From contig JAGWOI010000003.1 of NCBI GenBank assembly GCA_028870995.1, positions 39,955 to 103,954 on the forward strand: DNA of 64,000 bases, read 5' to 3'. The DNA is from Candidatus Omnitrophota bacterium (GTDB lineage Bacteria > Omnitrophota > Gorgyraeia > Zapsychrales > Fredricksoniimonadaceae). Positions 28,901-64,000 of this stretch are shown in pieces. The notes beneath the pieces were generated by a model that saw only the letters and a program-made list of their open reading frames with translations, did not search any database and was not told where the DNA came from. The translations under genes were made by a program, and so were the position numbers. The number at the start of each line of letters is the position of its first letter. Position 1 is the first letter of the stretch.

Positions 28901-31900
28901 TAAAGGTGCTTGATCCAAATGAGATCAAAGGCTTACCGCAGCAGTTCACAGAAAAGCAGCAACAAGCCCATCAAAGCCTCGTTTATAAAAAGGACGTCAT
29001 CCACGGCACAGAGTCATTGATGGTCATGGATAACGAAAACTACGGCCGTTATACCGCCAAATATACGGCGGATCAATTTACCAATCCTGAAGGCCAGACC
29101 TCAAAATTAAGCACGGTCTTAATTCCTGAATACCGCCCCGATTTTATGGGAGGGCAGGTGCCGTATGTGACACGCGAGTACAGCGGTGCCGGCAAACTAA
29201 TGAAGGAAAGCCTGACCATTTCCATTGATGCCGTCACCCAGGTGACAACCGTTCAAGAGAAGAACATGCGCACCGGTGAGGTGATTGAGAAGAATATTGA
29301 GCCTCTTTTCGGTAATTCGCTGACGGAATCCAAGATGGATTCTTTGGGCCGACAAGAGATTGTGAGCAATGTTTACAGCAACGACTACTTGCACGTCTCT
29401 TCCACCACGGTCATAGGCGGAACCTTGGCTGTCGAGACCAAGGGCACCTATAATCAAGCCGCTCAGCAATGGACCCTGGAACAAACCCGCTGGAATTACA
29501 GCAGGAATGCTCAACAGGAAAAAGTCCCTGTCAAATATGAGACAGTTCGCAGCGTCTTAAGTGCCGGCGGGCATTTGATCTATGAAGATACCATGTTTCC
29601 CCAAAATGTTTATGAAATAAACGGGCATACGTACACCGAAAACGACCGCAGGTTTATCCCGGAATACGACGTAAACGGTAATATCAGCCGCAGTACGGAA
29701 GGAATCATTGCCAATGGAGTTTTTACTCCCAAAGAGATTATGGAATACAGCGATTACGGTGATTTCTTTGCGGCGCGGCAATCGTTCACCAAGCGCATCA
29801 TCAATGGTAAGGAAATCATCTATTCGACCTCCCGGCTGCTGACAACGCCGGCGGAATATCAAAAAAGCGGCAAATTACGTTTCGAGGTCACGAGCAAGGT
29901 CTATGACAAGGCCGATGATCCTGCCACATGGATTGAGACGACTGACAGGGACGGGCATTTGGTCGAGAAATCCCTGCAGGTTTATGACGGCCAAAATCTG
30001 GTCGGTGAACAGGTCACGAGTTTCAGTAATTTCAATGTCCAGAATATTCCTGCTCAATCCACCACCTTTATCCGCCAGGGCGCTGCGAATGAGGTGCTTT
30101 CCACATCTATCGATAAGACTTCCCTTGAGGAGGCCAGGCTTGGCCTGGAGAGAACAGAGATCACCAATCAATTCAACGGCCTGGTCCGCCAGGAATTAAG
30201 AGACCGGCGCGGCCGGGTCATCGAAAACGACATTGAAGGCGTCGATCCGGTGACCGGACGGCAGGAGGTCCAGCGAAAGACTGTTTTTTATAATTTTAAC
30301 GAGTTCGATATTGCGGTTGATTCCGTTACAAAGTCCTTGCTGGAAGGGACCTTCACGCCGTACACGACATCCAAACTTTTGTCGGACTACAACGATATCC
30401 TGACCAATCACAGCATCCGTTTTCATGTGCATAATGATTTCTTAAGCAGCACGGCTAACAGCGTGGACTGGCAGGAAGTCAAGGACTATCACGGACACGT
30501 CATCGAATTGGACAAGGGGCATATGAATCCCAACGGCCAATTTGAGGCAACTCGCAAAATCACGTCAACCTATCAAGGGATCCCGGGTCTGATCGATGTG
30601 GCCAACAGCACCAGGACAGTCATGGTCATTGACGGCAAACCCGGGTTGCTGACCGATCAGAGCCATTTGATCACGGCGCATGGGGTGACCATTGACGCGC
30701 ATAATATCAACACCATTCCGGCCCAGGATATTTTTAACGGGGTGCACAAGGTCCGTTACCAAGGCATCAGCTATTTTACCGAATTGGAGGGTATGACGTC
30801 AACGGACCGCGATTATCAGGAGATAAGAAACAGCCTCGGTAATGTGGAGGTTACCCTGTTCGGAACAGTTGACCCGCAGGGCCATTTTAACAAGAACCGC
30901 AGCTTATACCGTGTTTATGGGACGACGGAAAATAATTTCAGCAACTTTGATATTGCAAAAGCCACTGTGACGACAGTGGGTGATAAAGGGCATGAAGAAG
31001 TGGTTTCTTATTCCAACAACACCCACATCACGGACGATGACCGGTACCTAATTTATAAGACTAAAAAGGGGCTAGGGGCGCAAGGACTTGTCCTGACCAA
31101 TGACGTGTTCGCTAATCTTGGCGCCATCACCGCCCAGGTCTCAGGACCGGAACACCAGTTGGATTTGACCCATCTGACAGAGACCATCAGCCAGGTCAAG
31201 GATTCCGAAGGAAGGGTTATATTTACCTTTTCAGGTTTTCCTTCCCTTAATATCAACGGATTCGGAACTGGCAATCCCGTCTTTGTGACGGTCAACCAGT
31301 ACCAGGAAAACAGGATCAGCCAGCCGGTGGCAGCCCACAGCCAGACTTATTTTTGGAAGAAAGCCATGGGGGATTATGACCCCACGGATAATTTCAATCA
31401 ATTGAAGAACTATATTCATAACAACCATCCGACGGTGATTGCCTCGCTCGACAACCTTATGTTTGACAAAGGCGTTGCCACCTATAAAACCGATGATATG
31501 AGGGAAGTCGGCTTGCGCACCGTGTCCATGCGTCTGGACGGGACCATGTACCGTAATTCTTATCAAGGCTCCGGTGTGGACGGCCCGGCCTTGTTTAATT
31601 TGTATTTTGACGAGCATGAATTACCCAGTTACGGCATGGAAATAGGCCCGAGCGGGATCGAAAAACCGTTCTCTATCTATAGACCGACCTTGTTTAACTA
31701 CGGCACCAATCTTGTACCGTATGTCTTGATCGATGAATTCCGTTCCCCGGAAAAAGGCGCTAATAATGAATTTGATTTTCAAAATCAGAAACCTCACGCT
31801 TCCATCCTGATGCATAACGGTACCATCCAGTTGGTACGCACAGGCTCAGCCGTGCGCACAACGCCGTTCTCTTCCATGTTCAGTTTGGGTGATTTGGAAA

Positions 31901-34900
31901 GGAACGGCGTATTCGGCAAGGCAGTGCGCCTTATTCATGAAACCGACCCTGAGAAAATTATGGACGCTGGCCATCAACAAGCCCAAAGCGGAACAGCCCA
32001 GAGCTATGTTTCTTCGTCAGCTAAGAAAATAACCTTTGAGCAAGAAACCTGGGGACAGAAGGCGGCATGGCTGGGACAACAGGCAGGCTTTTTGTTAGGG
32101 TCATTAGGATTCATGTACGCCGTTGTGCTGGCTGCCCGTATCTTCGGTTTTTCAACCAGCTCGCTTCGTTCATTACGGAAAAAAGACATCAATTCCGCCT
32201 CCCAGCAAAACTTCGAAGATCTTGGCTTCACCAAAGAGCAAAGCCAAATTATTCTGGACGAACGTTTCAGGAACGGCGCATTTTTAAGCCATCAGGATTT
32301 CAAAGACCGCCTGGGGGTAAAATTAAGCAGTGCCCACAAGCTTTCCGAGAAATGGCTGCCCAAAATGATTGCCAAGGCCCGCTTCTGGCTTGCCATGCAA
32401 GAGGTCTCATGGGCCAATGGAGAGGTGCCAGCGGAAAAAAGATTCAATACTCAAGACAGCCTGAGGCTGGCTGCCGCAGCCGATGACTCCGTCGTTGATT
32501 TCATGGCTGAACTTAAAGGCCTGTACGGTCTTAAGCCCGAACAGCAGGCGTCTTATGAAAGCGCCCTAAGGATGTTTGGGAAATACCTCAAGGCCGAACA
32601 ATTGCGCGATATTGTCAATACACCGCATTTCCGGTCTCTGGTCGATCATTACAGCAAACAGCGCGCAGCGGAAGTCATCTTGAAATTGATGTTTGAGAAG
32701 ATCCGCGACAATCAGGATTATAAGAATGCCGTCAGGCAGCGCGTTGACGATATTATCAGCAGCACAGGGATGGGCCGTGAATTCCCTGACCAGATTTTTG
32801 CCCTTAAGGACACCTTCCTTAAGAATATCGAGAATGCGCGGCTGCTTCCGGAAGGCCTGCGTTTCCATGATTTCGATATCAGCACGGATTTGCTGGCTTA
32901 TTCCTGGGATGACTTGCGCAAAGGCCCGGACATGGAGCGTCAGGTAAGAAGCGACCTTGTGTCCATCGAGAAATTGTTTGTCTTCCAGGTGATCTTCCAA
33001 AGGGCCCTCTTCGGCCTGGCAGGCCAGGGCAGGGCGGAAGAATATTTATGGGCCAAGTATGTTTGGCCTTCCATAAACAAGCGTCAAGCCCTGAACGACC
33101 CTGATATTCTCCAGAAGATCAAAGCCTTCAAACAGGTCTTTCATGCCTTGCTGCTGGATGAAGTCAATAAACGCCTGGAAGGCAACCGCGATCCCAAAGG
33201 CAAGGTGCTTTATTTTCAGAATATCGTTAATGAAGAGGTGTATAACGATGCCTTCCGTTATTTGTTAGGCCAGAAAGATCCCACCCTGGCTGATGCGGGT
33301 TGGACTCTGTCCGATGATGTCAAAAAGAAGACAGCGCCTATTAGAGAAAAATTGGAAAAGGCCCTGGCCGACATTAATGAGGTCATCGAACTGCCTTCAG
33401 AACAAAGGGCTGAAGAAGTCAAAACGAAAGCGGAAAAGATTAAGCCCCTGGTCCTTGCCTATGTCGGCGCGGTTGATCAACAGATCGGTATGCCGGTGCT
33501 CAAAGGACGCCTGTCTTATTGGCAGCTGACCGTCAACCCCTTGCTTAAGATACTGGGTAATAAAAAGATGCGCCAGCGGATTTTTTCCAAAGGCGGCCCC
33601 TACAACCAAAGCGCGCATGACCTGGTGCGGCGCCTCAATCATTATATTATTTTTGGATCGGTTGCCGTGATGTTTGCCGGCCTGACCCTTAACCTGTTCA
33701 GCGTCTTTCCCTTCATGGTCCCGCCGAGCTTTATTATGGCACCATGGTCCCCTTTGTTGGCAGGCGCGGCCGCCACAGTCACCTCCTTTGTCGGTTCATG
33801 GCTGGTCAAAAAAAGATTGATCAGTTCCTTAAATAAGAAATTAAAGAACGTGAACGAAGAACAAAATAAGGGGAAGAATAAAGAACAGCAGGAAAAGGTC
33901 ATTAAATCGTTCGGCTCCAAGGTAAAGTATCTATACCTTGCTCAAGCCGGTCTTGTCTTAGGCTCCTTGCTGTTGATGCCCACGCTGGCACCGGCGCTGA
34001 CGGCGTGGCTGGGCATTGCTCCTCAAATGTTACCGGTAGCTCCCTTCATTCGTTTTGCCATCCATCTGATACCGGTCATGATCTTCATCGATACCTGGCG
34101 GTTGTCCTTCTATGCCATGAACCATCTGGTTTCAGCCATGGCCTTGCAGCAATATTATGCCACCAATAATGTTTACGAAATCAACAATAAGTCCAGGACA
34201 GACAAAATAACCGGACGTTTAATGGCCCTTTTTAAAGATACCGCTCCGGCACTGGGGACTGTTTATAAAACGCGCGGCCAGGAACGCCTGGCCTCCTTTG
34301 TCAATGTGGTGGATGAAATGACCAGCGAAAAGGACAATTATTTCTTCGCAAAAAATATCGATAAGCAAGGGAAATCTTCTTTGACCGCTAAGCTTTCTCA
34401 ACTGGCAGGGGAACTGGTGGATGCTCAAGGCAAGCCTGATGCAGACAAGATAAGAGATCTGCAGGAAGAAATCGAAACATTTGTGGAAAAAGTAGCAATA
34501 CCTATCAATGTGGAAGGGAAAACAGCTGCCAAATCAGAGAAGCTTGGGCTGCAGAAGCTGGTTGATTTTGTTAATCATAACTACCGCCTGGATAAGGGGG
34601 CGAATCCTTCAACCTGGGGCCATGTGATTCCCACGACCGTGGCCATTATCGGCTACAGTGAAGACTGGTACTTTACCAACGGCGAGCTGCTGGATATCAA
34701 CCGCGGAACGTTCGAAGAGTCGACGATCATTGGAAAATTTGAAAACAGTACGACTGGCCATGACGTCCTGGATAAATTGCTTAAGCACGGCATTCTGCTT
34801 CAAGAAGGCTTAATGTCCAGGAAGGAAGAATTTAAGCGTAAGGTGCGCGTCAACGTGGATTTAAGCGACAAGGAGATCAAACAAATAGCATTGAATGCGG

Positions 34901-37900
34901 GCATAGATGAAAGCGATTTTAATAAAATCGCGCCTCTCCTGAAGGAATGGCGCGACGCCCAGAATGAAGCACAAGAATTTACCCATCGCCTGGGCATGCT
35001 GGCCAAATATAAAACAGAATTGTTCTTGCTCATGGTCAACCGCTTGACCAAGCCAGACTCCCTTGAACGCACAGAGCTTTTGAAAATGATCGATGATCCG
35101 ACCCATGTCCCTGAAGGCATCCTGGACTGGGAGATCTGGCCGCAGATACAGGAATGGGCCAACCTGCAGTTGCCAACGGGCTATGCCAATGCAGTGACCC
35201 AAAAACGTACCCTGATGCGTTTATATACGCATTATGCCAGAATATTCGGCGTAGCTAATCCCGAGGCCGCTGCTGAAGAGAAGATCCGTGTCATTGACCG
35301 CAATCTTATGGCCATGGATGCTTTGAATAAGGTGCTGATTCACGCCGTTGCCAAGACCACCTTTATTAAAGAATTCACGCAAGGGGAGCAGATTTTTAAT
35401 TGGTTGATGGGAAAAGGGTATTTTTATAATGAAGGCAAGAAACAAAATCCGCCCGTGCCTCCGGTTGATGGTCTTCCCAAACCATTGACAGCAGATTCTA
35501 AGAAAAAATTAAAGGAGCAATTCCCCGGGGACTATGAACGTATTGTTCCCATCCTGGAAGAAGCCGGCAGGGGCAGATTAAGAGAGATGCTGGATGTTTT
35601 GATTGAAACAGGGTATCAAGATACTTATAAAGTTTATCCGGATGGGACAAGCAGAGGTGTAAAGGATCCCTATAAGCTTATTAAGGACAATCAAGACAGG
35701 ATCATGGGGGGGATTGATAAAATTAGATACGATATCGATATGTTGACAAAGTTGATGGATTCCATCAAGTATGACCGGCTGTTCCCGGCCAGGTTAAAAG
35801 GCGGAGGGGTAGACACCGCCGATTTATTAACGGGAGAAAATTACCATGGCGCGAAATGGAACCAGAAAACAGCTATCCTGCCTTTCCTGGTGGGACCGGT
35901 TATCCTTAACCTTGATGCCGACCACCGTGCCAATTATGTGGATTACGAATCCCTTCCCAACCATTTGCTGGATTACAATTATTGGCCCGGCCTGGCTGTT
36001 TCAACGCCCATCGTCAAGCACACCTTGACCAAGGGCTTGGGTGTTTTCGGGAACATCCTGCCGGTCTCGGAGAATGCATTTTATTATCATGCCCAGCAGG
36101 CCAAGGAACTTTTCGGCGGCTTGACCGCGACGGGAAAGCTCTTCGAAAGGGTCTCAGCCCTCCGGCATTCCGAGGGAGTTACGGATTCTTATGTCGCCGA
36201 GGATGCGTTGTCGGCAATCAATTACCGGCGGTTCGGTTATGTCACCGGCCGCGCAGGCGCAGTAAAGGTGGAAAAGGGCTGGCCGTTCTCTTTCGCCGCG
36301 GCATCAACCCCGACGAGGAAGTGGTCTTATGACTCGGTGGAATCCGTCAGCGGCAGGACCGCCATGAAGGTGTACATGTCTCCGCTGGTTGACTGGCCAT
36401 TCCTGGTCAACAATTTCTGGCTGGACGGTTTTGGGTTTTATTTCAAGAAACCGGGGATCGTCCGCTATCTGCGCTGGCTGGTGGCGTTCTACCTGGTCAT
36501 GGATTGGAACCTTTTTTCCAACATTCCCCTCTCCATGTGGGTCGGCAGCATGATGCTTTCCCAGTCCATCAGCCAGGGCTTGTTTTTTTATAAGATATTC
36601 GACGAATCGCGGGGCTATGTAAAAGGCACGCTCAGCGCTTTGGGCAGCATTGCGGCCAGGATGTACAGTTATTTTGTGCATCAGGTCTTTGTTTTTGAGG
36701 AAACGGTGGGCAAACTTGCGCCCAACCGTTTGGGTAAATTCCTTTCAACGGCCTCCAAAGGGTCCAACCAGACCCGCATACAGAACAAGGACCTGATGTA
36801 TGTGCGCAGCAATTATGCCATCAAATCAGCCTCTGTTATGGCGGGGGTGACCTTGACCTTGATAGGTTTGTCCCTCAAAAAGTCCGGTTTATGGGCTCTT
36901 ACCCTGGGCATGGGTTTTGCCGGGGTGGCTGCACCGTTTTTGTTAAATCCGGTGCGGATCAGGAAACGTGTAAAAGATAATTTCAGCAATGGGAAGGATA
37001 TTGGAGGCGCTTTTGTCTGGGGCCTGACGGACAATGTGGAAATGCTGATGTATTATCTCAGCGGGTTATTGGCGCGCGTAGGGATAAAATCTTTTCGTTC
37101 AACAGAAGATGACCTGCAGATCAAGGTCTTAGACATGGTCCAGGCCAGAGTATCTCAGCCGTTGGACAAAATCCCTACCGGAAAATGGGGAACGACCTTT
37201 AAGGAAGCCTTTGGTCAGCAGGCCGAAGCCGCGGCTGAATTGGCCGAATACATATATTTATTCCATCAAAAGCCCAGCCATTATCGCAGCATGTATGGCC
37301 GTTCCGTCCTGCCTGCCGTTAACGGACTGTTAAAGATCCTGGCCAATAATCCCGGAAAAGAAGGAACGGATTATTCAAAGAAAATATTAGGGGATGAATT
37401 GGGGGCCTATAAGGAAGCCTTGGGGGTCCGCTTTAAGGAAGTTAAACAATATTTGGAGGTTTTTAAGCATGCCAAGGGGTATGAAAAAATGGTCAGAGAC
37501 GCCGAAAAACAGCTCGCTAAGGCGGATGAAATTTTAAAAAAGACTTCACCGTCAGCAAAGCAGCTGAACCGTGCCGATTGGTTGTTGACCCAGCTTTCCT
37601 GGATCCCGATGCGTATTCAGCGTCAACCTGGAACAATATCAAAACTGAGAGACCAATTTTTAAACACCATGATCGGCGTTGATGCCGTCTCTCAATTAGT
37701 GGCTTTTGCTTGGCTGCCTCTGCGATTATTCTTGGACAGGATAACAAGGACCCCTAAAACTGTTGAGAATGAAAAGAAGGCCTTGGAAATACCGAAATCC
37801 ACCGTTGTTCCTTTGGCGCCCAAAGCCGCGGAAGATAAGGCCATGGCAAGTTCTCCCAAACCCGCAGGAGTCAATAGGATTGCCAAGATTACCAATCCCG

Positions 37901-38085
37901 GCGGTATTGACCTTTCCAAAACAAGGGTCAAAGTCAGTGCCAGGAGTACACCCATTAAAATCAGCTACGATGATCCCGCTTTATTGCGTTTGTTGTTGAA
38001 TGCCGATGGGCTTGCCCCTATAATTTATAGCGTAAGAACAATGACCCCATCCATGGCTGATCATTTTGTAGGTTTGGACTATTGA
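22966..38085 (+). CDS. giant (5,039 aa) secreted / polytopic membrane protein of unknown function
   Basis: A single uninterrupted 15,120-nt ORF in the ORF track. It has an N-terminal signal peptide (MIKANKTPLVWLVILAFSVNTLITGPVFA). There are no internal stops, and none of the ORFs on the other frames or strand exceeds 173 aa. The amino-acid composition is ordinary along its whole length. Domain hints are given in the findings. An RBS-like AAGAAAG lies upstream. Confidence 0.7.
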   Translation: MIKANKTPLVWLVILAFSVNTLITGPVFADVPFLPAPGRLVPLTPSFSPPIILGLKVFKNNPFKFEFVMSEGDRAPGPDSVARRAFLKAEGDKLVKYFLASLTIPQKDMWVNLSPYEHDRIIAPEFGITEMGKQMLAQDYLLKQVTASVMYPNGAVGREFWGKIYREAYKRFGTTNIPVSTFNKVWILPDKAEVYENQVDNTAVIIKSSLKVMLEEDYLALRKSSLPGEVHKDSSADRQLSNELIRQIILPLIEKEVNTGKNFAGLRQVYNSLILAFWYKNKLKESLISKGYVNRKKIHGVEVKDKNIDEEIYRQYLKSYKKGVYNFIKEEVDPSTQETIPRKYFSGGIVWDNLGRQMSTVFGRDSAQAASLILKSAKTFELTVGLEEIQHASSGNPLYLDLNSITSSKPLFSAQDITRLNEAITDTRNFLEPEPVEDAAMLGTTTRRWAAALVGLALLAGANTVYAKGAYDPMPQQPAATNGLSATSAPSTAPSTAADLNHLLSNTVTNAVNPLQMPGPQALTNTTANANPTNQMSANDRDKFALDLRNDQNWTKLQDTLLSPDAPYFVIVNTSKTNTYSIIRSFDKWLGDGSGHDPQSYIDFVYGSGSSPDNQPNVTFKIRVPPPASQGKVDISTIDSWTQIVNPDQIKQIQLDRKTIYVQVFWKDKDGHAQSGVVYAGPKAALTVQHMMNDAQLDNDLTQKILKITSIPDYEEQINTILKTSGLPEAGTNDVSKEGGIIVGAYVQRDQFGSITSVTGWIHARDIDTQIVKGTDDKPHLVLYNNGKDPQILKYWPYGQDIDVFSVLTPAELNMLHDPQTADLALNKYLYNLGGSPLERGGIVFGKNKYIKKMMEVEAQKAIAEHDKQATKEYLHYLKVSEKADLLFSAASGGLSAVGINAPVNAVGDILVDMKYQPEKIGQYVPTAEELQQLFNEYNAQQPKEDQVVLKNGRFETVKGFYTQRDIELLDGWLVKRNKEKTAAFILQQVSRMAVIASYYTPTKTKSSGAYRFQVPENDALYHFLAQDVGSFLGEFNVAGLYNTVSSHGLQYVSLGNLLNKGSFLNKLTSVLGVTINGQSLINEITGRKVFELAPSKTRINFYVLGFPISHFFEEDLVANIDKILNDRDSYAFIVKDGHFRSVAVAFTKDQFQALYKSAVPIGKISNISPVDGRPMSVPVYEVETISPSGEHIHQTMVFTLKALEQAGLDVRRDLERYDNFTKMLNEGGAVFHYGSDGGTLSQNIYTGLFKSFSQQGMDDFPSAYTFDQAGADRFFIEMGNFQSAKWNLDFFFDVMKAQLKLSGQFQGLSKSYNAYNGADASDQPDIGGTSMMAQTIMAYEKSTGDKKYHLLLTESIKWLLKVQKENGGKALPDTPGGHLFNPEPNAIAFAALHNFGTIYNDKDALLAADQIRQWAAGLWDKENFLIKSPNGNYPADNNTRWLQALGPKAFMETFLDNDPVKLGKFLRAMEKTFGVTVINYHTGQTVHLLDLADQQKADGRLTNDQHTPNHRIGFPEVTAEFLQGLIDSRPYLTREDAAFADQLIAKYSGQLQAMTDRNGNLPQATDKGKDSGYNGLTILGNHSLASGVQYQFMVLGLDPLHLDGPRGNALGLKPDKIEIPPVLSFNTLNQGAVIKPGETNYLQMSRYFNQLIIDEHAHHNRNLIYHDPINNLHFVYINTADHIVDARLIPSPKEIQKQVVLAGEDAQMTALKSQALNGQGAFPHGGVIFQTPDGKRLGMLRGVEGQSDAVEDVLSAVGQLPVQEQSFINYKGFSNFMLHNYKVDGVHQDVMVTVVFPLHKSIVHDVKDDHNVITTSIYEGGRLRFIINDNTTTVMNYDDATGVESTTTSYHNFAGGREAMVKMLSDSSKPLAERQALFNGQHPSNKTTTVWAGYIDPTLSMDRVDPNEVWIIKRSTNLDTGHVTTQGYGLFTRPVWEADQFTVTENHFDQSGSFTHAEQFQNTGTLQTPQKGQELFEIKVLDPNEIKGLPQQFTEKQQQAHQSLVYKKDVIHGTESLMVMDNENYGRYTAKYTADQFTNPEGQTSKLSTVLIPEYRPDFMGGQVPYVTREYSGAGKLMKESLTISIDAVTQVTTVQEKNMRTGEVIEKNIEPLFGNSLTESKMDSLGRQEIVSNVYSNDYLHVSSTTVIGGTLAVETKGTYNQAAQQWTLEQTRWNYSRNAQQEKVPVKYETVRSVLSAGGHLIYEDTMFPQNVYEINGHTYTENDRRFIPEYDVNGNISRSTEGIIANGVFTPKEIMEYSDYGDFFAARQSFTKRIINGKEIIYSTSRLLTTPAEYQKSGKLRFEVTSKVYDKADDPATWIETTDRDGHLVEKSLQVYDGQNLVGEQVTSFSNFNVQNIPAQSTTFIRQGAANEVLSTSIDKTSLEEARLGLERTEITNQFNGLVRQELRDRRGRVIENDIEGVDPVTGRQEVQRKTVFYNFNEFDIAVDSVTKSLLEGTFTPYTTSKLLSDYNDILTNHSIRFHVHNDFLSSTANSVDWQEVKDYHGHVIELDKGHMNPNGQFEATRKITSTYQGIPGLIDVANSTRTVMVIDGKPGLLTDQSHLITAHGVTIDAHNINTIPAQDIFNGVHKVRYQGISYFTELEGMTSTDRDYQEIRNSLGNVEVTLFGTVDPQGHFNKNRSLYRVYGTTENNFSNFDIAKATVTTVGDKGHEEVVSYSNNTHITDDDRYLIYKTKKGLGAQGLVLTNDVFANLGAITAQVSGPEHQLDLTHLTETISQVKDSEGRVIFTFSGFPSLNINGFGTGNPVFVTVNQYQENRISQPVAAHSQTYFWKKAMGDYDPTDNFNQLKNYIHNNHPTVIASLDNLMFDKGVATYKTDDMREVGLRTVSMRLDGTMYRNSYQGSGVDGPALFNLYFDEHELPSYGMEIGPSGIEKPFSIYRPTLFNYGTNLVPYVLIDEFRSPEKGANNEFDFQNQKPHASILMHNGTIQLVRTGSAVRTTPFSSMFSLGDLERNGVFGKAVRLIHETDPEKIMDAGHQQAQSGTAQSYVSSSAKKITFEQETWGQKAAWLGQQAGFLLGSLGFMYAVVLAARIFGFSTSSLRSLRKKDINSASQQNFEDLGFTKEQSQIILDERFRNGAFLSHQDFKDRLGVKLSSAHKLSEKWLPKMIAKARFWLAMQEVSWANGEVPAEKRFNTQDSLRLAAAADDSVVDFMAELKGLYGLKPEQQASYESALRMFGKYLKAEQLRDIVNTPHFRSLVDHYSKQRAAEVILKLMFEKIRDNQDYKNAVRQRVDDIISSTGMGREFPDQIFALKDTFLKNIENARLLPEGLRFHDFDISTDLLAYSWDDLRKGPDMERQVRSDLVSIEKLFVFQVIFQRALFGLAGQGRAEEYLWAKYVWPSINKRQALNDPDILQKIKAFKQVFHALLLDEVNKRLEGNRDPKGKVLYFQNIVNEEVYNDAFRYLLGQKDPTLADAGWTLSDDVKKKTAPIREKLEKALADINEVIELPSEQRAEEVKTKAEKIKPLVLAYVGAVDQQIGMPVLKGRLSYWQLTVNPLLKILGNKKMRQRIFSKGGPYNQSAHDLVRRLNHYIIFGSVAVMFAGLTLNLFSVFPFMVPPSFIMAPWSPLLAGAAATVTSFVGSWLVKKRLISSLNKKLKNVNEEQNKGKNKEQQEKVIKSFGSKVKYLYLAQAGLVLGSLLLMPTLAPALTAWLGIAPQMLPVAPFIRFAIHLIPVMIFIDTWRLSFYAMNHLVSAMALQQYYATNNVYEINNKSRTDKITGRLMALFKDTAPALGTVYKTRGQERLASFVNVVDEMTSEKDNYFFAKNIDKQGKSSLTAKLSQLAGELVDAQGKPDADKIRDLQEEIETFVEKVAIPINVEGKTAAKSEKLGLQKLVDFVNHNYRLDKGANPSTWGHVIPTTVAIIGYSEDWYFTNGELLDINRGTFEESTIIGKFENSTTGHDVLDKLLKHGILLQEGLMSRKEEFKRKVRVNVDLSDKEIKQIALNAGIDESDFNKIAPLLKEWRDAQNEAQEFTHRLGMLAKYKTELFLLMVNRLTKPDSLERTELLKMIDDPTHVPEGILDWEIWPQIQEWANLQLPTGYANAVTQKRTLMRLYTHYARIFGVANPEAAAEEKIRVIDRNLMAMDALNKVLIHAVAKTTFIKEFTQGEQIFNWLMGKGYFYNEGKKQNPPVPPVDGLPKPLTADSKKKLKEQFPGDYERIVPILEEAGRGRLREMLDVLIETGYQDTYKVYPDGTSRGVKDPYKLIKDNQDRIMGGIDKIRYDIDMLTKLMDSIKYDRLFPARLKGGGVDTADLLTGENYHGAKWNQKTAILPFLVGPVILNLDADHRANYVDYESLPNHLLDYNYWPGLAVSTPIVKHTLTKGLGVFGNILPVSENAFYYHAQQAKELFGGLTATGKLFERVSALRHSEGVTDSYVAEDALSAINYRRFGYVTGRAGAVKVEKGWPFSFAAASTPTRKWSYDSVESVSGRTAMKVYMSPLVDWPFLVNNFWLDGFGFYFKKPGIVRYLRWLVAFYLVMDWNLFSNIPLSMWVGSMMLSQSISQGLFFYKIFDESRGYVKGTLSALGSIAARMYSYFVHQVFVFEETVGKLAPNRLGKFLSTASKGSNQTRIQNKDLMYVRSNYAIKSASVMAGVTLTLIGLSLKKSGLWALTLGMGFAGVAAPFLLNPVRIRKRVKDNFSNGKDIGGAFVWGLTDNVEMLMYYLSGLLARVGIKSFRSTEDDLQIKVLDMVQARVSQPLDKIPTGKWGTTFKEAFGQQAEAAAELAEYIYLFHQKPSHYRSMYGRSVLPAVNGLLKILANNPGKEGTDYSKKILGDELGAYKEALGVRFKEVKQYLEVFKHAKGYEKMVRDAEKQLAKADEILKKTSPSAKQLNRADWLLTQLSWIPMRIQRQPGTISKLRDQFLNTMIGVDAVSQLVAFAWLPLRLFLDRITRTPKTVENEKKALEIPKSTVVPLAPKAAEDKAMASSPKPAGVNRIAKITNPGGIDLSKTRVKVSARSTPIKISYDDPALLRLLLNADGLAPIIYSVRTMTPSMADHFVGLDY

Positions 38086-54235: not shown

Positions 54236-55999
54236 ATGAGGATATCTGTCAATCATAGCTCTTTCAGAGGCCAGACCTCCATAGAATACCTTTTGCTTTT
54301 GGCGGTGGTGGCGGTGGTCGTGATAACCGCTTTCAGCCGCGGGGGCTTGATCGACAAGGTGCGCAACACGGCAGGGGATTATTATAATACCGTCACCCGC
54401 GTTATCATGGATAGTGACGACGGCACCCGGACCCTTCCCAACGGTAAGACAGCTTCCGTAGATACGCCCAATCCCATCGACGGCGGCTGGTGCCCGGTCG
54501 TTTGTCCGACCGGCAGCGGCCCTACTACCATTTACGGCGCCTGTGAATGCCCGGCGCCTGCCTTCGGCGGGCAAGGCTGTCCCAGCCTCACGGTTTCCTG
54601 TCTGGAGGGCAAGGAGACGGCCGGCCCCAATACGGGAGGGGCTTGCAAAGGCCAGGTCATATACTGCGGCGGGACGACAAGCTGCGGTCCTTGTCCGGCT
54701 GGTCAATCTTGCGGCGCGCCGCCTCCGGTGGTTACGAATACACCAGGATGCGGCTGTGCCGATGGCCTGACCTGTGATCCCAATCAACGTTGTACCCCGG
54801 GCCTTTACGGGTGCCCGGACAGCTGCACTCCCAGTTGCACCAGGCAAACCTGTCCTCAATGCTATCCTCCGACCGGCTCCATTCCAGATGCGCAGTGCAG
54901 CAGCTGTGAATGCCCGTCGGGCTCATTTTACGATCAAGCCAGCAACAGCTGTCTCAGTTATTGCCCGAAACCGCCAGGGGCTGTTTCTTCATGTAATACT
55001 TGGAACGGGACATCCTGCGTGCCGGTCAACTGCGGCACCAATCAATATTGCGATACGTCCAAACCTCCCGCCTGTCAATGCCAGTGTGATCAGTATTCCT
55101 ATTGGAATGGTTATGCCTGTGTTTATTGCACTGCAGATACTCAGGGCCATTGTACCCTGCCTGTGTCGACGGGCGGCAGCGGCCCATGTAATACAGGGGC
55201 GACGACGACGTGCCAGTCGATCACTTGCCCGAATAATATGTATTGCAACACAGCGCAGAATGCCTGCCAGTGTATCGCTGGGACTTCCTGGAACGGCACG
55301 GCCTGCGTTACGACCAAGATCAATGGGGCCTGTGGAACAACAGAGGGTTCTTGTACGGCAGGCACCGCCGGGAGCATTACTACGACCAATTCTACCTATA
55401 CGTGGACCTGTCAAGGCAGTGGCGGCGGCTCCAACGCCTCTTGCTGCGCGCCTGTTGTGGCCTGTCCTACGTCTGGGACCATTTGCGGCAAAGATGCGTG
55501 CGGCAATACCTGCCCCGGCGCAACCACATGTGGGGCAGGATATCAATGCAGCAATAATATTTGCCAGGATTGCTGCACGGGATTCTGTGGGGGAACCAGA
55601 TGCGGCAAAACTTGCCCTAATACCTGTGGATATACCAATGGGACGGGGACGCAAGACGAGTGCTGTTCGACGAGTACGCCGCCATACACGCGGTGCCTGG
55701 GAGCAGAAACGATTACGACATATCCCAAGCCTTCCGCCTGCAAGAGTGTGCAAATTCCCAATACATCACCGACGTCGAATTATTACTATACCTGTGCTCT
55801 AAAAGTAACCGGCGGCTGGGTAACGCCTTCATGCAGTAATTATAATGGCGCCAGTTGCAAGAAAAATACCGGCGGGGCGGCCTGGCCGGGTGTCTGCTTC
55901 TCCAATAATAGTTCTACGACCAGCGCCGTGTCGATGTATTATAACAAGGCCGTCACCATCGAGTGCTCCCAGGTTTACATCCCCGGCGGGGGCGCGTAA
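54236..55999 (+). CDS. Cys-rich secreted protein with a Flp/TadE-type (class III) prepilin N-terminus
   Basis: N-terminus MRISVNHSSFRG↓QTSIEYLLLLAVVAVVVITAF carries the G/xxxxEY prepilin-peptidase motif plus a hydrophobic helix. The remaining ~550 aa are about 12% Cys with repeated C-x-C motifs and two copies of the module C..N.YC[DN]T....ACQC......WNG.AC. An AAGGAGAG RBS is present. The long overlapping ORFs on other frames and the opposite strand are Arg/Ala/Pro-rich shadows. Confidence 0.6.
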   Translation: MRISVNHSSFRGQTSIEYLLLLAVVAVVVITAFSRGGLIDKVRNTAGDYYNTVTRVIMDSDDGTRTLPNGKTASVDTPNPIDGGWCPVVCPTGSGPTTIYGACECPAPAFGGQGCPSLTVSCLEGKETAGPNTGGACKGQVIYCGGTTSCGPCPAGQSCGAPPPVVTNTPGCGCADGLTCDPNQRCTPGLYGCPDSCTPSCTRQTCPQCYPPTGSIPDAQCSSCECPSGSFYDQASNSCLSYCPKPPGAVSSCNTWNGTSCVPVNCGTNQYCDTSKPPACQCQCDQYSYWNGYACVYCTADTQGHCTLPVSTGGSGPCNTGATTTCQSITCPNNMYCNTAQNACQCIAGTSWNGTACVTTKINGACGTTEGSCTAGTAGSITTTNSTYTWTCQGSGGGSNASCCAPVVACPTSGTICGKDACGNTCPGATTCGAGYQCSNNICQDCCTGFCGGTRCGKTCPNTCGYTNGTGTQDECCSTSTPPYTRCLGAETITTYPKPSACKSVQIPNTSPTSNYYYTCALKVTGGWVTPSCSNYNGASCKKNTGGAAWPGVCFSNNSSTTSAVSMYYNKAVTIECSQVYIPGGGA

Positions 56000-59842: not shown

Positions 59843-59920
59843 GGCCCCATCGTCTAGCCTGGTCCAGGACGTCTGCTTCTCAGGCAGAAAACACCGGTTC
59901 AAATCCGGTTGGGGCTACCA
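59843..59920 (+). tRNA. tRNA-Glu (anticodon CUC)
   Basis: Hand-folded. Acceptor GGCCCCA/TGGGGCT (G·U at 1-72), D-arm GTCT…AGGAC, anticodon stem TCTGC/GCAGA with loop TTCTCAG, T-arm ACCGG-TTCAAAT-CCGGT, discriminator A and CCA. Confidence 0.8.
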
Positions 59921-59929
59921 AAAATATAA

Positions 59930-59959
59930 GGGACACGTTTGCGTGTCCCTTTTTATTTT
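59930..59959 (+). terminator. rho-independent terminator after tRNA-Glu
   Basis: GGGACACG-uuug-CGUGUCCC followed by UUUUUAUUUUU. Confidence 0.6.
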
Positions 59960-60029
59960 TGAGGCTTCCTTCCTTAAAATAGAATAGCCGGCAAGCCGGC
60001 GCTTTTGATGATCCGCCTTTCTTCTTCGA

Positions 60030-60120
60030 TTTTTAATTCTTTTTTAATCTCTTCTTTAGGAAACTTCAGTTAAAAAGGAACTAACCGGGCGAAATAGAGG
60101 TATAGGCAGTGTTGGAAAGG
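60030..60120 (+). repeat. conserved ~90-bp intergenic element, copy A
   Basis: tttttaattcttttttaatctcttctttaggaaacttcagttaaaaaggaactaaccgggcgaaatagaggtataggcagtgttggaaagg. It is about 80% identical to copy B at 63376-63470. Confidence 0.45.
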
Positions 60121-60134
60121 GATAAACATTTAAG

Positions 60135-60203
60135 TTGCATTATTGACCTTCAAGGGCTTTTGGTCATGGATTTCACGGCTGAAGTGCTTGCTGCCTTTCT
60201 AAG
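60135..60203 (+). pseudogene. decayed 5' fragment homologous to the start of the CDS at 63818
   Basis: gaccttcaagggcttttggtcatggatttcacggctgaag… translates in one frame to LQGLLVMDFTAEVLAAFLSPPE. Compare PDLQGLLVSDFTADPLAAFLNLPE at 63827-63895. DNA identity is about 70% over 69 nt. There is no start codon, and the fragment ends at the RBS of the 60228 gene. Confidence 0.4.
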
Positions 60204-60227
60204 CCCTCCTGAGAGGAGGATTAGGCA

Positions 60228-63200
60228 ATGTTAAAACTTCTATTTTTCCTAGTGATGTCATTTGGTGTAAGTTCGGCAGCTTTTGCCACGAATTATTATA
60301 TCGATTGCCAAGGGAATGATTCCAACAACGGTTTAAGTGCTACGACCGCTTGGGCTAGTTTCAAGCCGACGGAATCGACTAATTTTTTGAAACCTGGCGA
60401 TGTGGTCAACGTTAAGGCAGGCTGCACTTTCACCGGAAGCGCTTCGGAGGCTTTCATTTATTCTGCCGGGACCGCCGCCAATCCTATTACGATCCAACCC
60501 TATGGGACGGGTGCCAATCCGGTATTTGACGCCACCGTCGATCCTTCCACGGTGCCGGGCTGGTCGGGCTGGACCGTATCCGATTCGACCAATGGCGTTT
60601 ATGTTTCCAATGTGCCTGTGCCGTGGTCGGTAAATTCCATCATCGTAGACGGAACGTATAGTTTAAGGAAATTAGATAGCTATCAATGTTCGCAGGGGGT
60701 CATAAGCAAGGAGCCCTACAGTGAATGCCAAAATGGCGCCGGCTCGCAGATTTATATTCATTTGGCCCAGGAGGCGAATCCATCAGGGCATAAGATAGCC
60801 TTCAGTAAATACGGCAATGGCGATGGGGATGGGCATACCCGCGGTCAATTCGGCGTGCACGACTCCACGGAACAATATGTTAACATCAACAATATCAGCA
60901 TTGTCGGATCGAATTCCCAGGGCTTCTCTTCCGGCGCGCCCTATGTTAATTTTAACGGTGTCAGCAGCTTGGGAGCGGCACGGGAAGGGATCTACATTAT
61001 ATCCCATGCCGTTCAGAATGGCACAGGGGCCGCCTATAATACGATCAACCAATCCACTTTTTCATGGTCTAACTCCAATTTCGGACAGCAGGTGACCATA
61101 GAGTCGCCCCATGTGGATCTGGTCGATGTGATCTCTAAGAATGGCTGGATGGCCGGCATCGATTGGCTGGATTATACCTCGGATACGAACGCCTCTTTTG
61201 GCCGGTGTATCCGTTGCATAGCGCATGACAATGGCCAGAGAAGCTGGTCTTCGGATTATAACGGCTATGATCCCGTGGGTATTTATGTTGACGGGGGGCA
61301 TGACATTCAAATCATCGATTCAGTAGTTTACCAGAGCCCCTTGCCGGCGGGCATCACCAGCCAGAACGCGATTTATGGGATCGCCTTCCAAACGGAACAT
61401 CCCAGCATAAAACCTGAATCCAATAACTTTATCATCAATAGTTTGGTTTACGGCATCAATTACCAGGATGTGCTTTTGTCAGGGGCCATTAATTGCACCG
61501 GGACCGCGTGTAATGTCAATGACAACATGGGCATGATAGGCACGACCCTCATCCGGGGAGGCTATCAGTTAATGTCCATGAATTCGCTCATACCCAATAA
61601 AAGTCTGAAAGGCGTATTTTTATACAACAACGTTTATTATAACGGCAGCAACACTGTCGGGGCAGAGCCGCTTATTAACTCTTATAATGTAACTTCCGAT
61701 TACAATGTTTATTATACCTCTCCTTCGGGGCAGTACATTTGGGATCCCAGCATAACCCTGTCGGCATGGCAAGGGGCCTCGGGCCAGGATGCCCATTCGC
61801 AATATGCCAATCCCTTATTTGCTGGATCAGGGATCACCGGCGAAATCGACCAATCCTATCATTTATCATCGGTCGCAGCCGGCCAGAATGCCAATTCGCC
61901 CGCTATAGGCGCAGCCACCCATGCACAACCGGGAAGCGCTTATGTTTATTCAAGTATTGGGACGGTACGCACGGATAACGTGGTAGACAGTTCCTCCACA
62001 CCGGCGGCGGGGTATCACTATTTGGCCAAATATTCACTTCCAACGACTGGGACCGGCGGCGGAACGCCTCCCAGCGGCGGCACCACCCCTCCCACTCCCA
62101 CTGTCTATAGTTTAACCATCTCAACTTCCGGCAGCGGTTTTGGGATGATCTTTGATGCGACCAATCTCATCAACTGCGGCGTAAACCCCGGTGCGACACA
62201 ATGCAGCGCATCCATTAACGGCGGCACTGCTGTCAGTTTAACGGCAACACCGGCGAGCGGATCGTCTTTTAACGGCTGGACCATTACAGGCTCTCAGGCA
62301 GGGACCTGCACATCAACGACCAGCCCGTGCACATTGACGGTCACCGGAAATACTACGGTAACCGCTAATTTTGGGCCAACGACGACTACGAACACGGGGC
62401 TTTCCATAACCACACAACCGGCAAACCAAACCGTGACTGTGGGGCAGACAGCGGCCTTCAGCGTAGTTGCGTCCGGGGCCCAACCCTTGTACTACCAATG
62501 GCAAAAGGACGGGGTCAACATTACAGGGGCCAACAGCTCAACGTACACAACGCCTCCCACTACAGCAGCTGATGACTGGCGCACGTTTAAAGTTGTCATC
62601 AATAATGGTACGGGTGTTCTCATCAGCAACATGGCCACGTTAAGGGTCAATGCCGCCGCTGCCACGACTCCCCCAACCGGGGGTACGACTCCTCCCACCG
62701 GAGGCACTACAGGCGGCACAGGAGCGCCTTCCATCACCACACAACCGGCAGACCAAACCGTCGCTGTGGGACAAGCAGCGACCTTCAGCGTAGCTGCGTC
62801 CGGGGCCCAACCCTTGTACTACCAATGGCAAAAGGACGGGGTCAACATTACAGGAGCCAACAGTCCGACGTATACAACGGCACCCACCACAACCGCTGAT
62901 GACTGGCGCACGTTTAAAGTCGTCGTCAATAACAGCGCGGGTGTTGCCATCAGCAACCTGGCCACGTTAAGGGTCAATGCAGCTGCTGCCACTGGGGGCA
63001 CTACAGGCGGCACAGGAGCGCCCTCCATAACCACACAACCGGCGAACAAAACAGTGACGGCAGGGCAAACGGCGACCTTCAGCGTAGTGGCCACCGGCGG
63101 CCAACCCTTGTACTACCAATGGCAAAAGGACGGTGTCAATATTGCAGGGGCCAACAGCCCGACGTACACAACGCCGCCCACCACAACGGCGGATAATTGG

Positions 63201-63281
63201 CGCACATTCAAAGTTGTCGTCAGTAATACCAAGGGCGTCGCCATTAGCAATATGGTTGTATTGATGGTCAATCAAGGGTAA
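60228..63281 (+). CDS. secreted right-handed beta-helix (pectate-lyase-like) protein with three C-terminal Ig-like (I-set type) repeats
   Basis: Signal peptide MLKLLFFLVMSFGVSSAAFA. Then NYYIDCQGNDSNNGLSATTAWASFKPT…PGDVVNVKAGCTF, the typical start of parallel beta-helix proteins. G/T/P-rich linkers follow, then three ~85-aa repeats (ITTQPANQTVTVGQTAAFSVVASGAQPLYYQWQKDGVNITGANS.TYTT.PTT.AD.WRTFKVV…LRVN). RBS GAGGAGGA. Confidence 0.75.
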   Translation: MLKLLFFLVMSFGVSSAAFATNYYIDCQGNDSNNGLSATTAWASFKPTESTNFLKPGDVVNVKAGCTFTGSASEAFIYSAGTAANPITIQPYGTGANPVFDATVDPSTVPGWSGWTVSDSTNGVYVSNVPVPWSVNSIIVDGTYSLRKLDSYQCSQGVISKEPYSECQNGAGSQIYIHLAQEANPSGHKIAFSKYGNGDGDGHTRGQFGVHDSTEQYVNINNISIVGSNSQGFSSGAPYVNFNGVSSLGAAREGIYIISHAVQNGTGAAYNTINQSTFSWSNSNFGQQVTIESPHVDLVDVISKNGWMAGIDWLDYTSDTNASFGRCIRCIAHDNGQRSWSSDYNGYDPVGIYVDGGHDIQIIDSVVYQSPLPAGITSQNAIYGIAFQTEHPSIKPESNNFIINSLVYGINYQDVLLSGAINCTGTACNVNDNMGMIGTTLIRGGYQLMSMNSLIPNKSLKGVFLYNNVYYNGSNTVGAEPLINSYNVTSDYNVYYTSPSGQYIWDPSITLSAWQGASGQDAHSQYANPLFAGSGITGEIDQSYHLSSVAAGQNANSPAIGAATHAQPGSAYVYSSIGTVRTDNVVDSSSTPAAGYHYLAKYSLPTTGTGGGTPPSGGTTPPTPTVYSLTISTSGSGFGMIFDATNLINCGVNPGATQCSASINGGTAVSLTATPASGSSFNGWTITGSQAGTCTSTTSPCTLTVTGNTTVTANFGPTTTTNTGLSITTQPANQTVTVGQTAAFSVVASGAQPLYYQWQKDGVNITGANSSTYTTPPTTAADDWRTFKVVINNGTGVLISNMATLRVNAAAATTPPTGGTTPPTGGTTGGTGAPSITTQPADQTVAVGQAATFSVAASGAQPLYYQWQKDGVNITGANSPTYTTAPTTTADDWRTFKVVVNNSAGVAISNLATLRVNAAAATGGTTGGTGAPSITTQPANKTVTAGQTATFSVVATGGQPLYYQWQKDGVNIAGANSPTYTTPPTTTADNWRTFKVVVSNTKGVAISNMVVLMVNQG
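62400..63281 (+). repeat. three tandem near-identical ~300-bp coding repeats (Ig-like modules)
   Basis: For example 62461 agcgtagttgcgtccggggcccaacccttgtactaccaatggcaaaaggacggggtcaacattacagg, 62779 agcgtagctgcgtccggggcccaacccttgtactaccaatggcaaaaggacggggtcaacattacagg, 63079 agcgtagtggccaccggcggccaacccttgtactaccaatggcaaaaggacggtgtcaatattgcagg. The minus-strand ORFs 62313-63275 are shadows of the repeats. Confidence 0.75.
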
Positions 63282-63318
63282 CGCTATGGCTCAATCTATT
63301 TTAATTGGTTTTGGAGGT

Positions 63319-63345
63319 GAAGAGGAGACACCCTGTCTCCTCTTC
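63319..63345 (+). terminator. terminator-like hairpin after the Ig-repeat gene
   Basis: GAAGAGGAGACA-ccc-TGTCTCCTCTTC, an 11-12 bp stem. The U-tract is weak (followed by aaattg). Confidence 0.4.
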
Positions 63346-63375: not shown

Positions 63376-63470
63376 ATTTTTAATGCTTTTTTAATCTTTT
63401 CTTCATGAATTTTCCATTAAAAAGGGAGTAACCGGGCGAAATAAAGGTGTGCAGGTTGGAAACCAGGAAA
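63376..63470 (+). repeat. conserved ~90-bp intergenic element, copy B
   Basis: tttttaatgcttttttaatcttttcttcatgaattttccattaaaaagggagtaaccgggcgaaataaaggtgtgcaggttggaaacc. Confidence 0.45.
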
Positions 63471-63507
63471 GAGCCACTTTAAGTTATTTTTTTAGGAGGA
63501 TTCTGTC

Positions 63508-63828
63508 ATGAGTTTATCCGAAGATGTGACTAAAGAGGTGTTTGCGGCCATCGATGAATTCAACTTGAGTGAACCGCAACAATGGCACATCGAAAAGGAT
63601 TTAAGCGCCGTCCTGCTTGGTGATAATGGGACGCTGGATTCCCTGGGATTTGTCATGCTCATTGTTGCCCTGGAGCGCAGGCTTGAAGAAAAGCTTGGGC
63701 AAAACGTATCTTTGACGGATGAGAAGGCCATATCCCAACAGGACAAGGTCTTCAGGACAGTGGGAGACCTGATCGCTTACATTTGCACATTGATCGACAA
63801 TGAAAGGACCTGCGAATATGCCGCCTGA
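63508..63828 (+). CDS. acyl-carrier-protein-like small protein
   Basis: 106 aa. DSLGFVMLIVALERRLEEKLG resembles the ACP phosphopantetheine-attachment region (DSL + helix II). RBS AGGAGGA. Confidence 0.5.
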   Translation: MSLSEDVTKEVFAAIDEFNLSEPQQWHIEKDLSAVLLGDNGTLDSLGFVMLIVALERRLEEKLGQNVSLTDEKAISQQDKVFRTVGDLIAYICTLIDNERTCEYAA

Positions 63829-64000
63829 CCTTCAAGGACTTTTGGTTTCCGATTTTACCGCTGATCCGCTGGCCGCGTTTTTGAACCTTCCTGAGTGGCC
63901 GTCCTGCCGGATGCAGACGCTTCGTTTCGGTGAGCCCTGCGTTCACGAAACACCGGTTGATTTTTCGGTCATCTGGACACAGGCCGCCGGCACCATGCCC
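63818..64000 (+). CDS. unknown protein, partial (N-terminus only; continues beyond the window)
   Basis: ATG at 63818 overlapping the ACP-like stop. MPPDLQGLLVSDFTADPLAAFLNLPEWPSCRMQTLRFGEPCVHETPVDFSVIWTQAAGTMP. It is homologous to the fragment at 60135-60203. Confidence 0.4.
   Translation, partial: MPPDLQGLLVSDFTADPLAAFLNLPEWPSCRMQTLRFGEPCVHETPVDFSVIWTQAAGTMP

Follow-up and report, generated by a model that had tools for sequence, protein, structure and literature searches.

A probable 24-codon gene remnant between a repeated non-coding module and a secreted glycanase-like gene in an Omnitrophota genome

A 73-nt segment lying between a repeated non-coding module, here called module E, and the gene for a 1,017-aa secreted protein is homologous to the 5' end of ORF X, a reading frame that follows an acyl carrier protein (ACP)-like gene further along the same DNA. 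The best reading of the sequence comparisons is that this segment, the relic, is a remnant of an old, diverged paralogue or xenologue of X, designated X', and not a recent copy of the resident X. In the history that we consider probable, the locus would have held two units headed by module E and carrying diverged forms of X, X' would have been truncated when a glycanase/Ig gene joined behind its stump, and the relic would now be non-functional. The window referred to throughout is the whole 64,000-nucleotide stretch of DNA that was analysed. The copy of module E next to the relic (E_A) and its surroundings are termed copy A, and those next to the ACP-like gene (E_B) copy B. The features on which the argument draws are as follows.

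59843-59920, plus strand: tRNA-Glu(CTC), found by ARAGORN and Rfam; the final core feature conserved ahead of the variable DNA.
59928-59951, plus strand: terminator hairpin of the tRNA, in a native flank (59921-59973) that is 85% identical to related locus L001 (blastn).
59987-60000, plus strand: second short GC hairpin with a T-run, just before E_A, from the terminator scan.
60029-60136, plus strand: module E_A, AT-rich non-coding DNA of ~108 nt that is repeated upstream of the ACP-like gene.
60109-60234, plus strand: 41-aa ORF with a GTG start that encloses the relic; probably fortuitous.
60137-60143, plus strand: junction of 7 nt, GCATTAT, in place of the 340 nt of copy B (RBS and ACP-like CDS).
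60144-60216, plus strand: the relic, 24 codons (60145-60216) from the beginning of an X-like gene, with the T of TGA in front.
60205-60219, plus strand: hairpin CCUCCU-GAG-AGGAGG, in which the final codons of the relic pair with the Shine-Dalgarno sequence that serves the 1,017-aa gene.
60228-63281, plus strand: gene for the 1,017-aa secreted protein; after the signal peptide come a phage-related putative glycanase domain of ~600 aa, one InlB-B-like repeat and three repeats of the Ig type.
63319-63345, plus strand: 11-bp hairpin GAAGAGGAGAC-ACCCT-GTCTCCTCTTC after the 1,017-aa gene, read from the sequence.
63376-63485, plus strand: module E_B, the repeat of E_A that precedes the ACP-like gene.
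63494-63828, plus strand: RBS AGGAGGATT-N5-ATG and 106-aa ACP-like gene (CDS 63508-63828), named acyl carrier protein by NCBI.
63818-64000, plus strand: ORF X, 61 codons to the window edge; the counterpart of the relic.

Pairwise alignment within the window matched positions 60144-60216 to positions 63826-63898 over 73 nt without a gap, and 55 of the 73 positions (75%) were identical. An initial annotation, made from the sequence alone, had described a similarity between this stretch and the coding sequence that follows the ACP-like gene; the similarity is real, and its bounds have been adjusted to those given here. A blastn comparison of the relic with the remaining window returned a single strong hit (51.8 bits, E 1.2e-9). 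This is far better than chance, the best scores of 300 dinucleotide-preserving shuffles of the fragment having a mean of 24.1 bits (sd 1.9) and a maximum of 33.7, which places the observed score at a z of ~15. At the protein level (tblastn, E 1e-7) the relic peptide DLQGLLVMDFTAEVLAAFLSPPER and the ORF X peptide DLQGLLVSDFTADPLAAFLNLPEW are identical at 18 of 24 residues, the same match as in the initial annotation with one further D at the front. The two remaining frames of the alignment gave 10 of 23 and 12 of 23 identical residues, and both contain stop codons. Homology in copy B begins precisely at the TGA stop of the ACP-like gene and covers codons 4-27 of X, and in copy A the relic begins 7 nt after the end of E_A, so that the E repeat and the relic match are collinear. 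It is true that the source is a MAG and that MAG contigs can be chimeric at repeats, but repeats that are 75-85% identical are too diverged to mislead an assembler, and an E value of 1e-9, the separation from the shuffled sequences and the collinearity with a second repeat all stand against a fortuitous match. We therefore find a chance similarity or an assembly artefact scarcely credible.

The relic is truncated and has no ACP gene, and it runs into the RBS of the 1,017-aa gene, as had been described: its 3' end leads directly into AGGAGG (60214-60219) and the ATG at 60228. The native ATGCCGCC start region is missing, and 24 codons are left. The earlier remark that the fragment has no start codon holds in so far as the homologous position lacks an ATG; further upstream, however, the reading frame remains open as far back as a GTG at 60109. 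NCBI annotates no protein at the relic; the accessions of the FIST protein encoded upstream of the tRNA, of the Ig-domain protein of 1,017 aa and of the ACP-like protein are consecutive (MDE2221787 to MDE2221789), and each of the three is a singleton at 90% identity among ~15 billion proteins.

Laid side by side, copy A reads E_A, 7 nt, 24 codons of X', AGGAGGATT-N5-ATG and the 1,017-aa gene, and copy B reads E_B, AGGAGGATT-N5-ATG, the ACP-like gene and X. The RBS and its N5 spacing are identical for the 1,017-aa gene (60214-60230) and the ACP-like gene (63494-63510), and the nine-mer AGGAGGATT occurs three times in the 64-kb window. This identity hints that the RBS may belong to the shared module, and coincidence is also possible. 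Neither a simple truncation nor any other simple model accounts for the shared RBS.

In order to date the relic, the 18 nucleotide differences between it and X were assigned to codon positions, where they fall as 4, 4 and 10 at positions 1, 2 and 3. By the Nei-Gojobori method there are 9.5 synonymous differences over 17.3 sites (pS 0.55, dS ~1) and 8.5 non-synonymous differences over 54.7 sites (pN 0.155), with a dN/dS of ~0.18. We then simulated the placement of the 18 differences under three histories and scored the probability that at least 18 of the 24 residues would be identical. With both copies neutral this probability was 0.003, and with X constrained and the fragment neutral since the split it was 0.013-0.037, as against 0.18-0.83 with both copies constrained (ω from 0.3 to 0.1). 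Constraint on both copies thus makes the observed amino-acid identity 5-60 times likelier than does a fragment evolving neutrally ever since the split. The 73-nt relic contains no indels, in contrast to the four in the adjoining 35 nt of non-coding DNA in E. Since divergence is structured by codons and synonymous sites are near saturation, the copies appear to have split long ago, and the relic would have been coding for most of that time. The evidence that it belonged to a working gene for most of the divergence is moderately strong, not decisive, the signal from 24 codons being modest.

These values do not agree with the initial view of the fragment as a decayed copy of the downstream gene, for which the neutral-fragment probabilities are 0.003-0.037 beside a pS of 0.55, a dS of ~1 and a dN/dS of ~0.18. 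Nor does the description of this segment as recently rearranged fit synonymous sites that are near saturation, which indicate that the copies separated long ago. Recent segmental duplication would go with near-identical copies whose divergence ignores codons; the copies here are 75-85% identical, and their differences follow codon structure.

Put as a mechanism, this initial view amounts in essence to a partial duplication that brought about promoter capture, which we judge unlikely: the stretch that runs from E_B into X for ~80 nt would have been copied to a place before the large gene, the ACP copy would later have been deleted, and the fragment would have been non-coding ever since and decaying in place. 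Such an event would be consistent with E, the relic and perhaps the RBS standing in the same order in both copies, and tandem paralogues with a duplicated promoter and leader do exist in a related locus, L009. It is disfavoured by the probability of 0.013-0.037 that it assigns to the observed amino-acid identity, by a dS of ~1 where the non-coding E is merely 15% diverged, and by a relic that is free of indels next to non-coding DNA that has four.

The same comparison bears on module E. E_A and E_B are 85% identical over their first 73 nt, and their last ~35 nt require four indels to align. A divergence of 15% over those 73 nt compares with a 55% difference at the synonymous sites of the adjoining relic. 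Because E is far less diverged than the neighbouring synonymous sites, either selection has maintained it or gene conversion has homogenised it, and the relic thereby points to module E as a candidate functional regulatory sequence. Module E is probably a promoter or 5' leader. It occurs twice in the window, and no further copy was found elsewhere in the window, in metagenome contigs or in any fetched locus. As an RNA element it matched no Rfam family and folded no better than its shuffles, and a promoter scan found no match in it to the sigma-70 consensus. Sigma-54, ECF and sigma-28 motifs were also considered in E and were dropped as unconvincing on comparison by eye.

In copy B, with which the relic is compared, the ACP-like protein has an LDSLG motif, and its matches to PF00550 (E 0.047) and to the ACP/DltC models of NCBIfam (14-19 bits) are all below the cut-offs. 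It is an orphan: a search with the protein returned itself alone, and a genome scan with it gave no relatives. The ATG of ORF X (63818) overlaps the 3' end of the ACP-like gene. A word-based search found no homologue of X, and the hits from a full HMMER search of 1.84 billion representative proteins were all spurious, to repeat proteins of the Ig, cadherin and LRR types. Comparison of X with Pfam and NCBIfam at E values up to 10 yielded no family, and metagenome contigs scanned with a pattern based on the X-relic alignment gave no match. The X protein was not found in the protein collection that contains its three upstream neighbours; X may have been annotated there with another start or as a pseudogene. 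The N-terminus of X (LLVSDFT..L..FL) may resemble those of FkbH-like/HAD-IIIC proteins, which are often encoded after ACP genes; we do not claim a relationship.

The boundaries in copy B allow the events to be read in the opposite direction, with E-X' as the older 'empty site' and the RBS and ACP-like gene as a cassette of 340 nt inserted between E_B and X. The relic would then preserve the original junction, with the upstream GTG start included. This model would explain why homology resumes exactly at the TGA of the ACP-like ORF. It is also in keeping with the position of the X ATG inside the last codons of the ACP-like gene, with the orphan status of the ACP-like protein, and with a frame in copy A that is open back to a GTG preceded by GAGG. 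The 7 junction nucleotides can be aligned with neither side, however, and a separate event would still be required to truncate X'. Overlapping stop and start codons are, moreover, a common operon architecture for pairs formed by an ACP gene and a partner gene, which counts against giving the overlap any special meaning. We consider this order of events quite unlikely.

The open frame in copy A also raises the question of whether the relic has acquired a role. The GTG at 60109 has GAGG 8 nt upstream, the relic frame is open back to it, and the TAA of the 41-aa ORF (60232-60234) overlaps the ATG (60228) of the 1,017-aa gene (…CAATGTTAA). The CCUCCU/AGGAGG hairpin is present in both the minimum-free-energy and the centroid predicted folds, and the anti-Shine-Dalgarno hexamer is complete in the relic through a single CTT-to-CCT replacement. 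It is conceivable on these grounds that the 41-aa ORF was co-opted, and that its translation as a leader peptide, beginning inside module E_A, would open the hairpin, which sequesters the Shine-Dalgarno sequence, and couple to initiation of the large gene, with ribosomes re-initiating at the overlapping ATG. If this were true, the level at which a newly arrived gene is translated would be set by the remains of a dead one. Against it, the hairpin in its 36-nt context has a free energy of -9.1 kcal/mol with a z of -1.3, and 20 of 200 shuffles fold equally well, so that it is not significant alone; an open frame is expected by chance in ~58% of simulations. Moreover, E_B does not preserve the upstream part of this ORF: its indels put the frame out of register, and the equivalent ORF there ends after ~11 codons. 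The 41-aa ORF has no homologue and no family match in Pfam or NCBIfam. Co-option of the relic is, in our opinion, very unlikely.

The relic lies close to a boundary between two kinds of DNA. Upstream of 59.8 kb the window is core genome, with gltB, gltD, glpK, glpD, carA, carB, purF, pyrG and rpe together with genes for a histidine kinase, a response-regulator diguanylate cyclase and the FIST protein. Two reading frames in this upstream part are of separate interest. The first 2,500 residues of a 5,039-aa ORF at 22966-38085 match no Pfam family; a preprint (bioRxiv 10.64898/2026.06.07.730766) reports very long proteins as a trait of the Omnitrophota. A 587-aa ORF at 54236-55999, flanked by rpe and the response-regulator gene, is without a Pfam match at E 1e-5.

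We used the FIST protein to retrieve four related loci from Omnitrophota MAGs (65-71% identity). The pair formed by the FIST gene and tRNA-Glu(CTC) is kept in three of them (L001-L003), and the content after the tRNA differs in each, L002 having a D5-type primase/helicase and L003 a nucleotidyltransferase/HEPN pair (toxin-antitoxin). None of E, the ACP-like gene, X and the Ig gene was found in L001-L003. In L002 and L003 the tRNA passes straight into GTACTTTT, after which foreign genes begin, and L001 has a partial second tRNA 3' end (AAATCGGTTGGGGCTACCAGTACTTTT) with the same GTACTTTT, ~220 nt downstream of the tRNA. These sites are at L001 160-480, L002 9740-9840 and L003 5600-5700 (reverse strand, locus coordinates). 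The rebuilt tRNA 3' end of the relatives reads …GGGGCTACCA|GTACTTTT. This pattern bears the signature of elements integrating into the tRNA, and tRNA-Glu(CTC) is an integration hotspot in related Omnitrophota.

In the window itself there is no copy of the tRNA 3' end besides the tRNA, and no integrase ORF in the 4 kb visible after it (59.9-64 kb). Since the native terminator flank is kept and no copy of the tRNA end occurs in these 4 kb, the relic is not an integration (att) scar. The initial annotation had also taken the fragment to mark a rearranged accessory segment, with a synteny comparison as its check, and on this point the relatives bear it out: content after the tRNA differs across L001-L003, the Ig gene is absent from all three related Omnitrophota genomes, and relatives of the N-terminal part of the Ig gene occur in phage tail modules. 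The region after tRNA-Glu, one of the surface-polysaccharide kind, is therefore variable accessory-type DNA. In the collections searched we found no genome close enough to show an alternative state of the locus, and no intact E-(ACP')-X'.

In the 1,017-aa protein encoded behind the relic, Pfam recognizes only an InlB-B-like repeat and three Ig domains, all in the C-terminal 400 residues. The Ig domains are encoded by tandem units (62399-63286) in three copies of 267 nt, the second and third being 88% and 77% identical to the first; the units are spaced 327 and 294 nt apart, with T/P/G-rich linkers between the Ig domains. These repeats reflect recent internal duplication and expansion. A hairpin follows the gene at 63319-63345, and it is likely a terminator without a T-run that was missed by the terminator scan.

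The N-terminal ~600 aa (window 60228-62050) are 45-59% identical to homologues, among the matches listed. Homologues of ~620-650 aa are encoded in phage loci L005 (10001-11887), L006 (10001-11860), L007 (7627-9516) and L010 (4388-6337), where proteins P0010, P0011, P0012 and P0014 lie on contigs of 28-51 kb with phage genes for capsid, SU10-type adaptor, Dit, sheath-initiator, baseplate-wedge, lysozyme and DNA polymerase A. The genes for P0010, P0011 and P0012 are directly 3' of a tail-fibre gene (phrog_9942). These contigs belong to uncultivated phages and are absent from INPHARED and IMG/VR. In locus L009 (6746-13249), which is cellular and has Wzy-type, glycosyltransferase, WecG and acyltransferase genes, P0016 and P0020 form an Ig-tailed tandem pair that is ~50% identical to the N-terminal domain. 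All family members, including those of phages, share a signal-peptide-like N-terminus ending in …A-x-A before T-x-YYI-x-C. Such an N-terminus is unusual for a tail protein. None of E, the ACP-like gene and X was found in the fetched loci of these homologues.

The N-terminal family has no match in Pfam, PHROG, INPHARED or IMG/VR. The AlphaFold model of the domain has a mean pLDDT of 45.6, too poor for a fold search. The sole structural lead, a profile match to the GH136 lacto-N-biosidase/beta-helix structure 6kqs, was weak (E 8e-4 over 80 residues), and two distant hits, P0022 and P0023, carry PF13229. An identity as a beta-helix glycanase is plausible for the domain.

The tandem paralogues of L009 have a feature of their own. 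A near-consensus sigma-70 promoter (TTGACA-N17-TATAAT or TATATT) stands before each glycanase/Ig paralogue, at 6540-6600 and at 9915-9960, and their leaders begin alike (TTTATTTA.A..(G)GCAAAACC-like). In this gene family it is the second example of promoter and leader duplication.

The homology, the truncation, the codon structure of the divergence and the variability among relatives are observed. The history that we favour can be set out in steps, whose order and mechanism we infer, as we do the loss of function. The locus would once have carried two units, both headed by module E, which came from an old duplication or from the acquisition of a diverged allele. Both copies of X would have stayed coding until their synonymous sites neared saturation. 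Illegitimate recombination or deletion would then have removed the remainder of X', together with ACP' if it was present, and the same event would have left the 1,017-aa gene, complete with its RBS, immediately after E_A and the X' stump. This stump would now simply belong to the 5' untranslated leader that precedes the 1,017-aa coding sequence. Two routes had been proposed originally, namely that one copy of a duplicated unit was overwritten by the secreted gene, or that this gene arrived by recombination between the two elements, and the two are indistinguishable from present data.

On the proposed history the relic would serve as a historical marker, indicating that a second, diverged unit of the ACP/X type once stood at the start of the region, in a place behind module E that is now occupied by the gene for a secreted glycanase-like protein whose family also occurs in phages. 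For a phylum that has been little sampled, it helps to tell where core DNA gives way to accessory DNA. The chief by-products of the analysis are the sharing of a signal-peptide-bearing, glycanase-like family between phages and hosts, and the strong conservation of module E.

Several known systems resemble parts of this locus. As in tRNA-linked islands, variable DNA begins right after a tRNA, here tRNA-Glu(CTC); unlike them, the window keeps the native terminator flank and has neither an att copy nor an integrase in 4 kb. The 1,017-aa protein may be compared with phage tail polysaccharide depolymerases and with host exopolysaccharide glycanases, in that the family of its N-terminal ~600 aa is found beside tail-fibre genes or in a Wzy locus; it differs from the tail depolymerases in that the members of its family all have a signal-peptide-like N-terminus. 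JUMPStart/ops elements are leader modules shared upstream of polysaccharide operons, and module E is likewise non-coding and repeated before two transcription units of one locus, although it has no sequence resemblance to ops and no Rfam family. The closest parallel to the relic itself is found in the gene remnants that occur at cassette junctions of O-antigen and capsule clusters in enterobacteria and streptococci. There, as here, a truncated piece of a biosynthesis gene lies beside a gene of different origin in a variable locus, and the remnant is diverged from the resident copy, as after allele exchange. The present case differs in its host, an uncultivated member of the Omnitrophota, and in that the replacement is deduced from the locus itself, where a sister genome would show the alternative cassette. 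The relic is thus an ordinary gene-remnant scar in a variable region of the polysaccharide type, and not a new kind of system.
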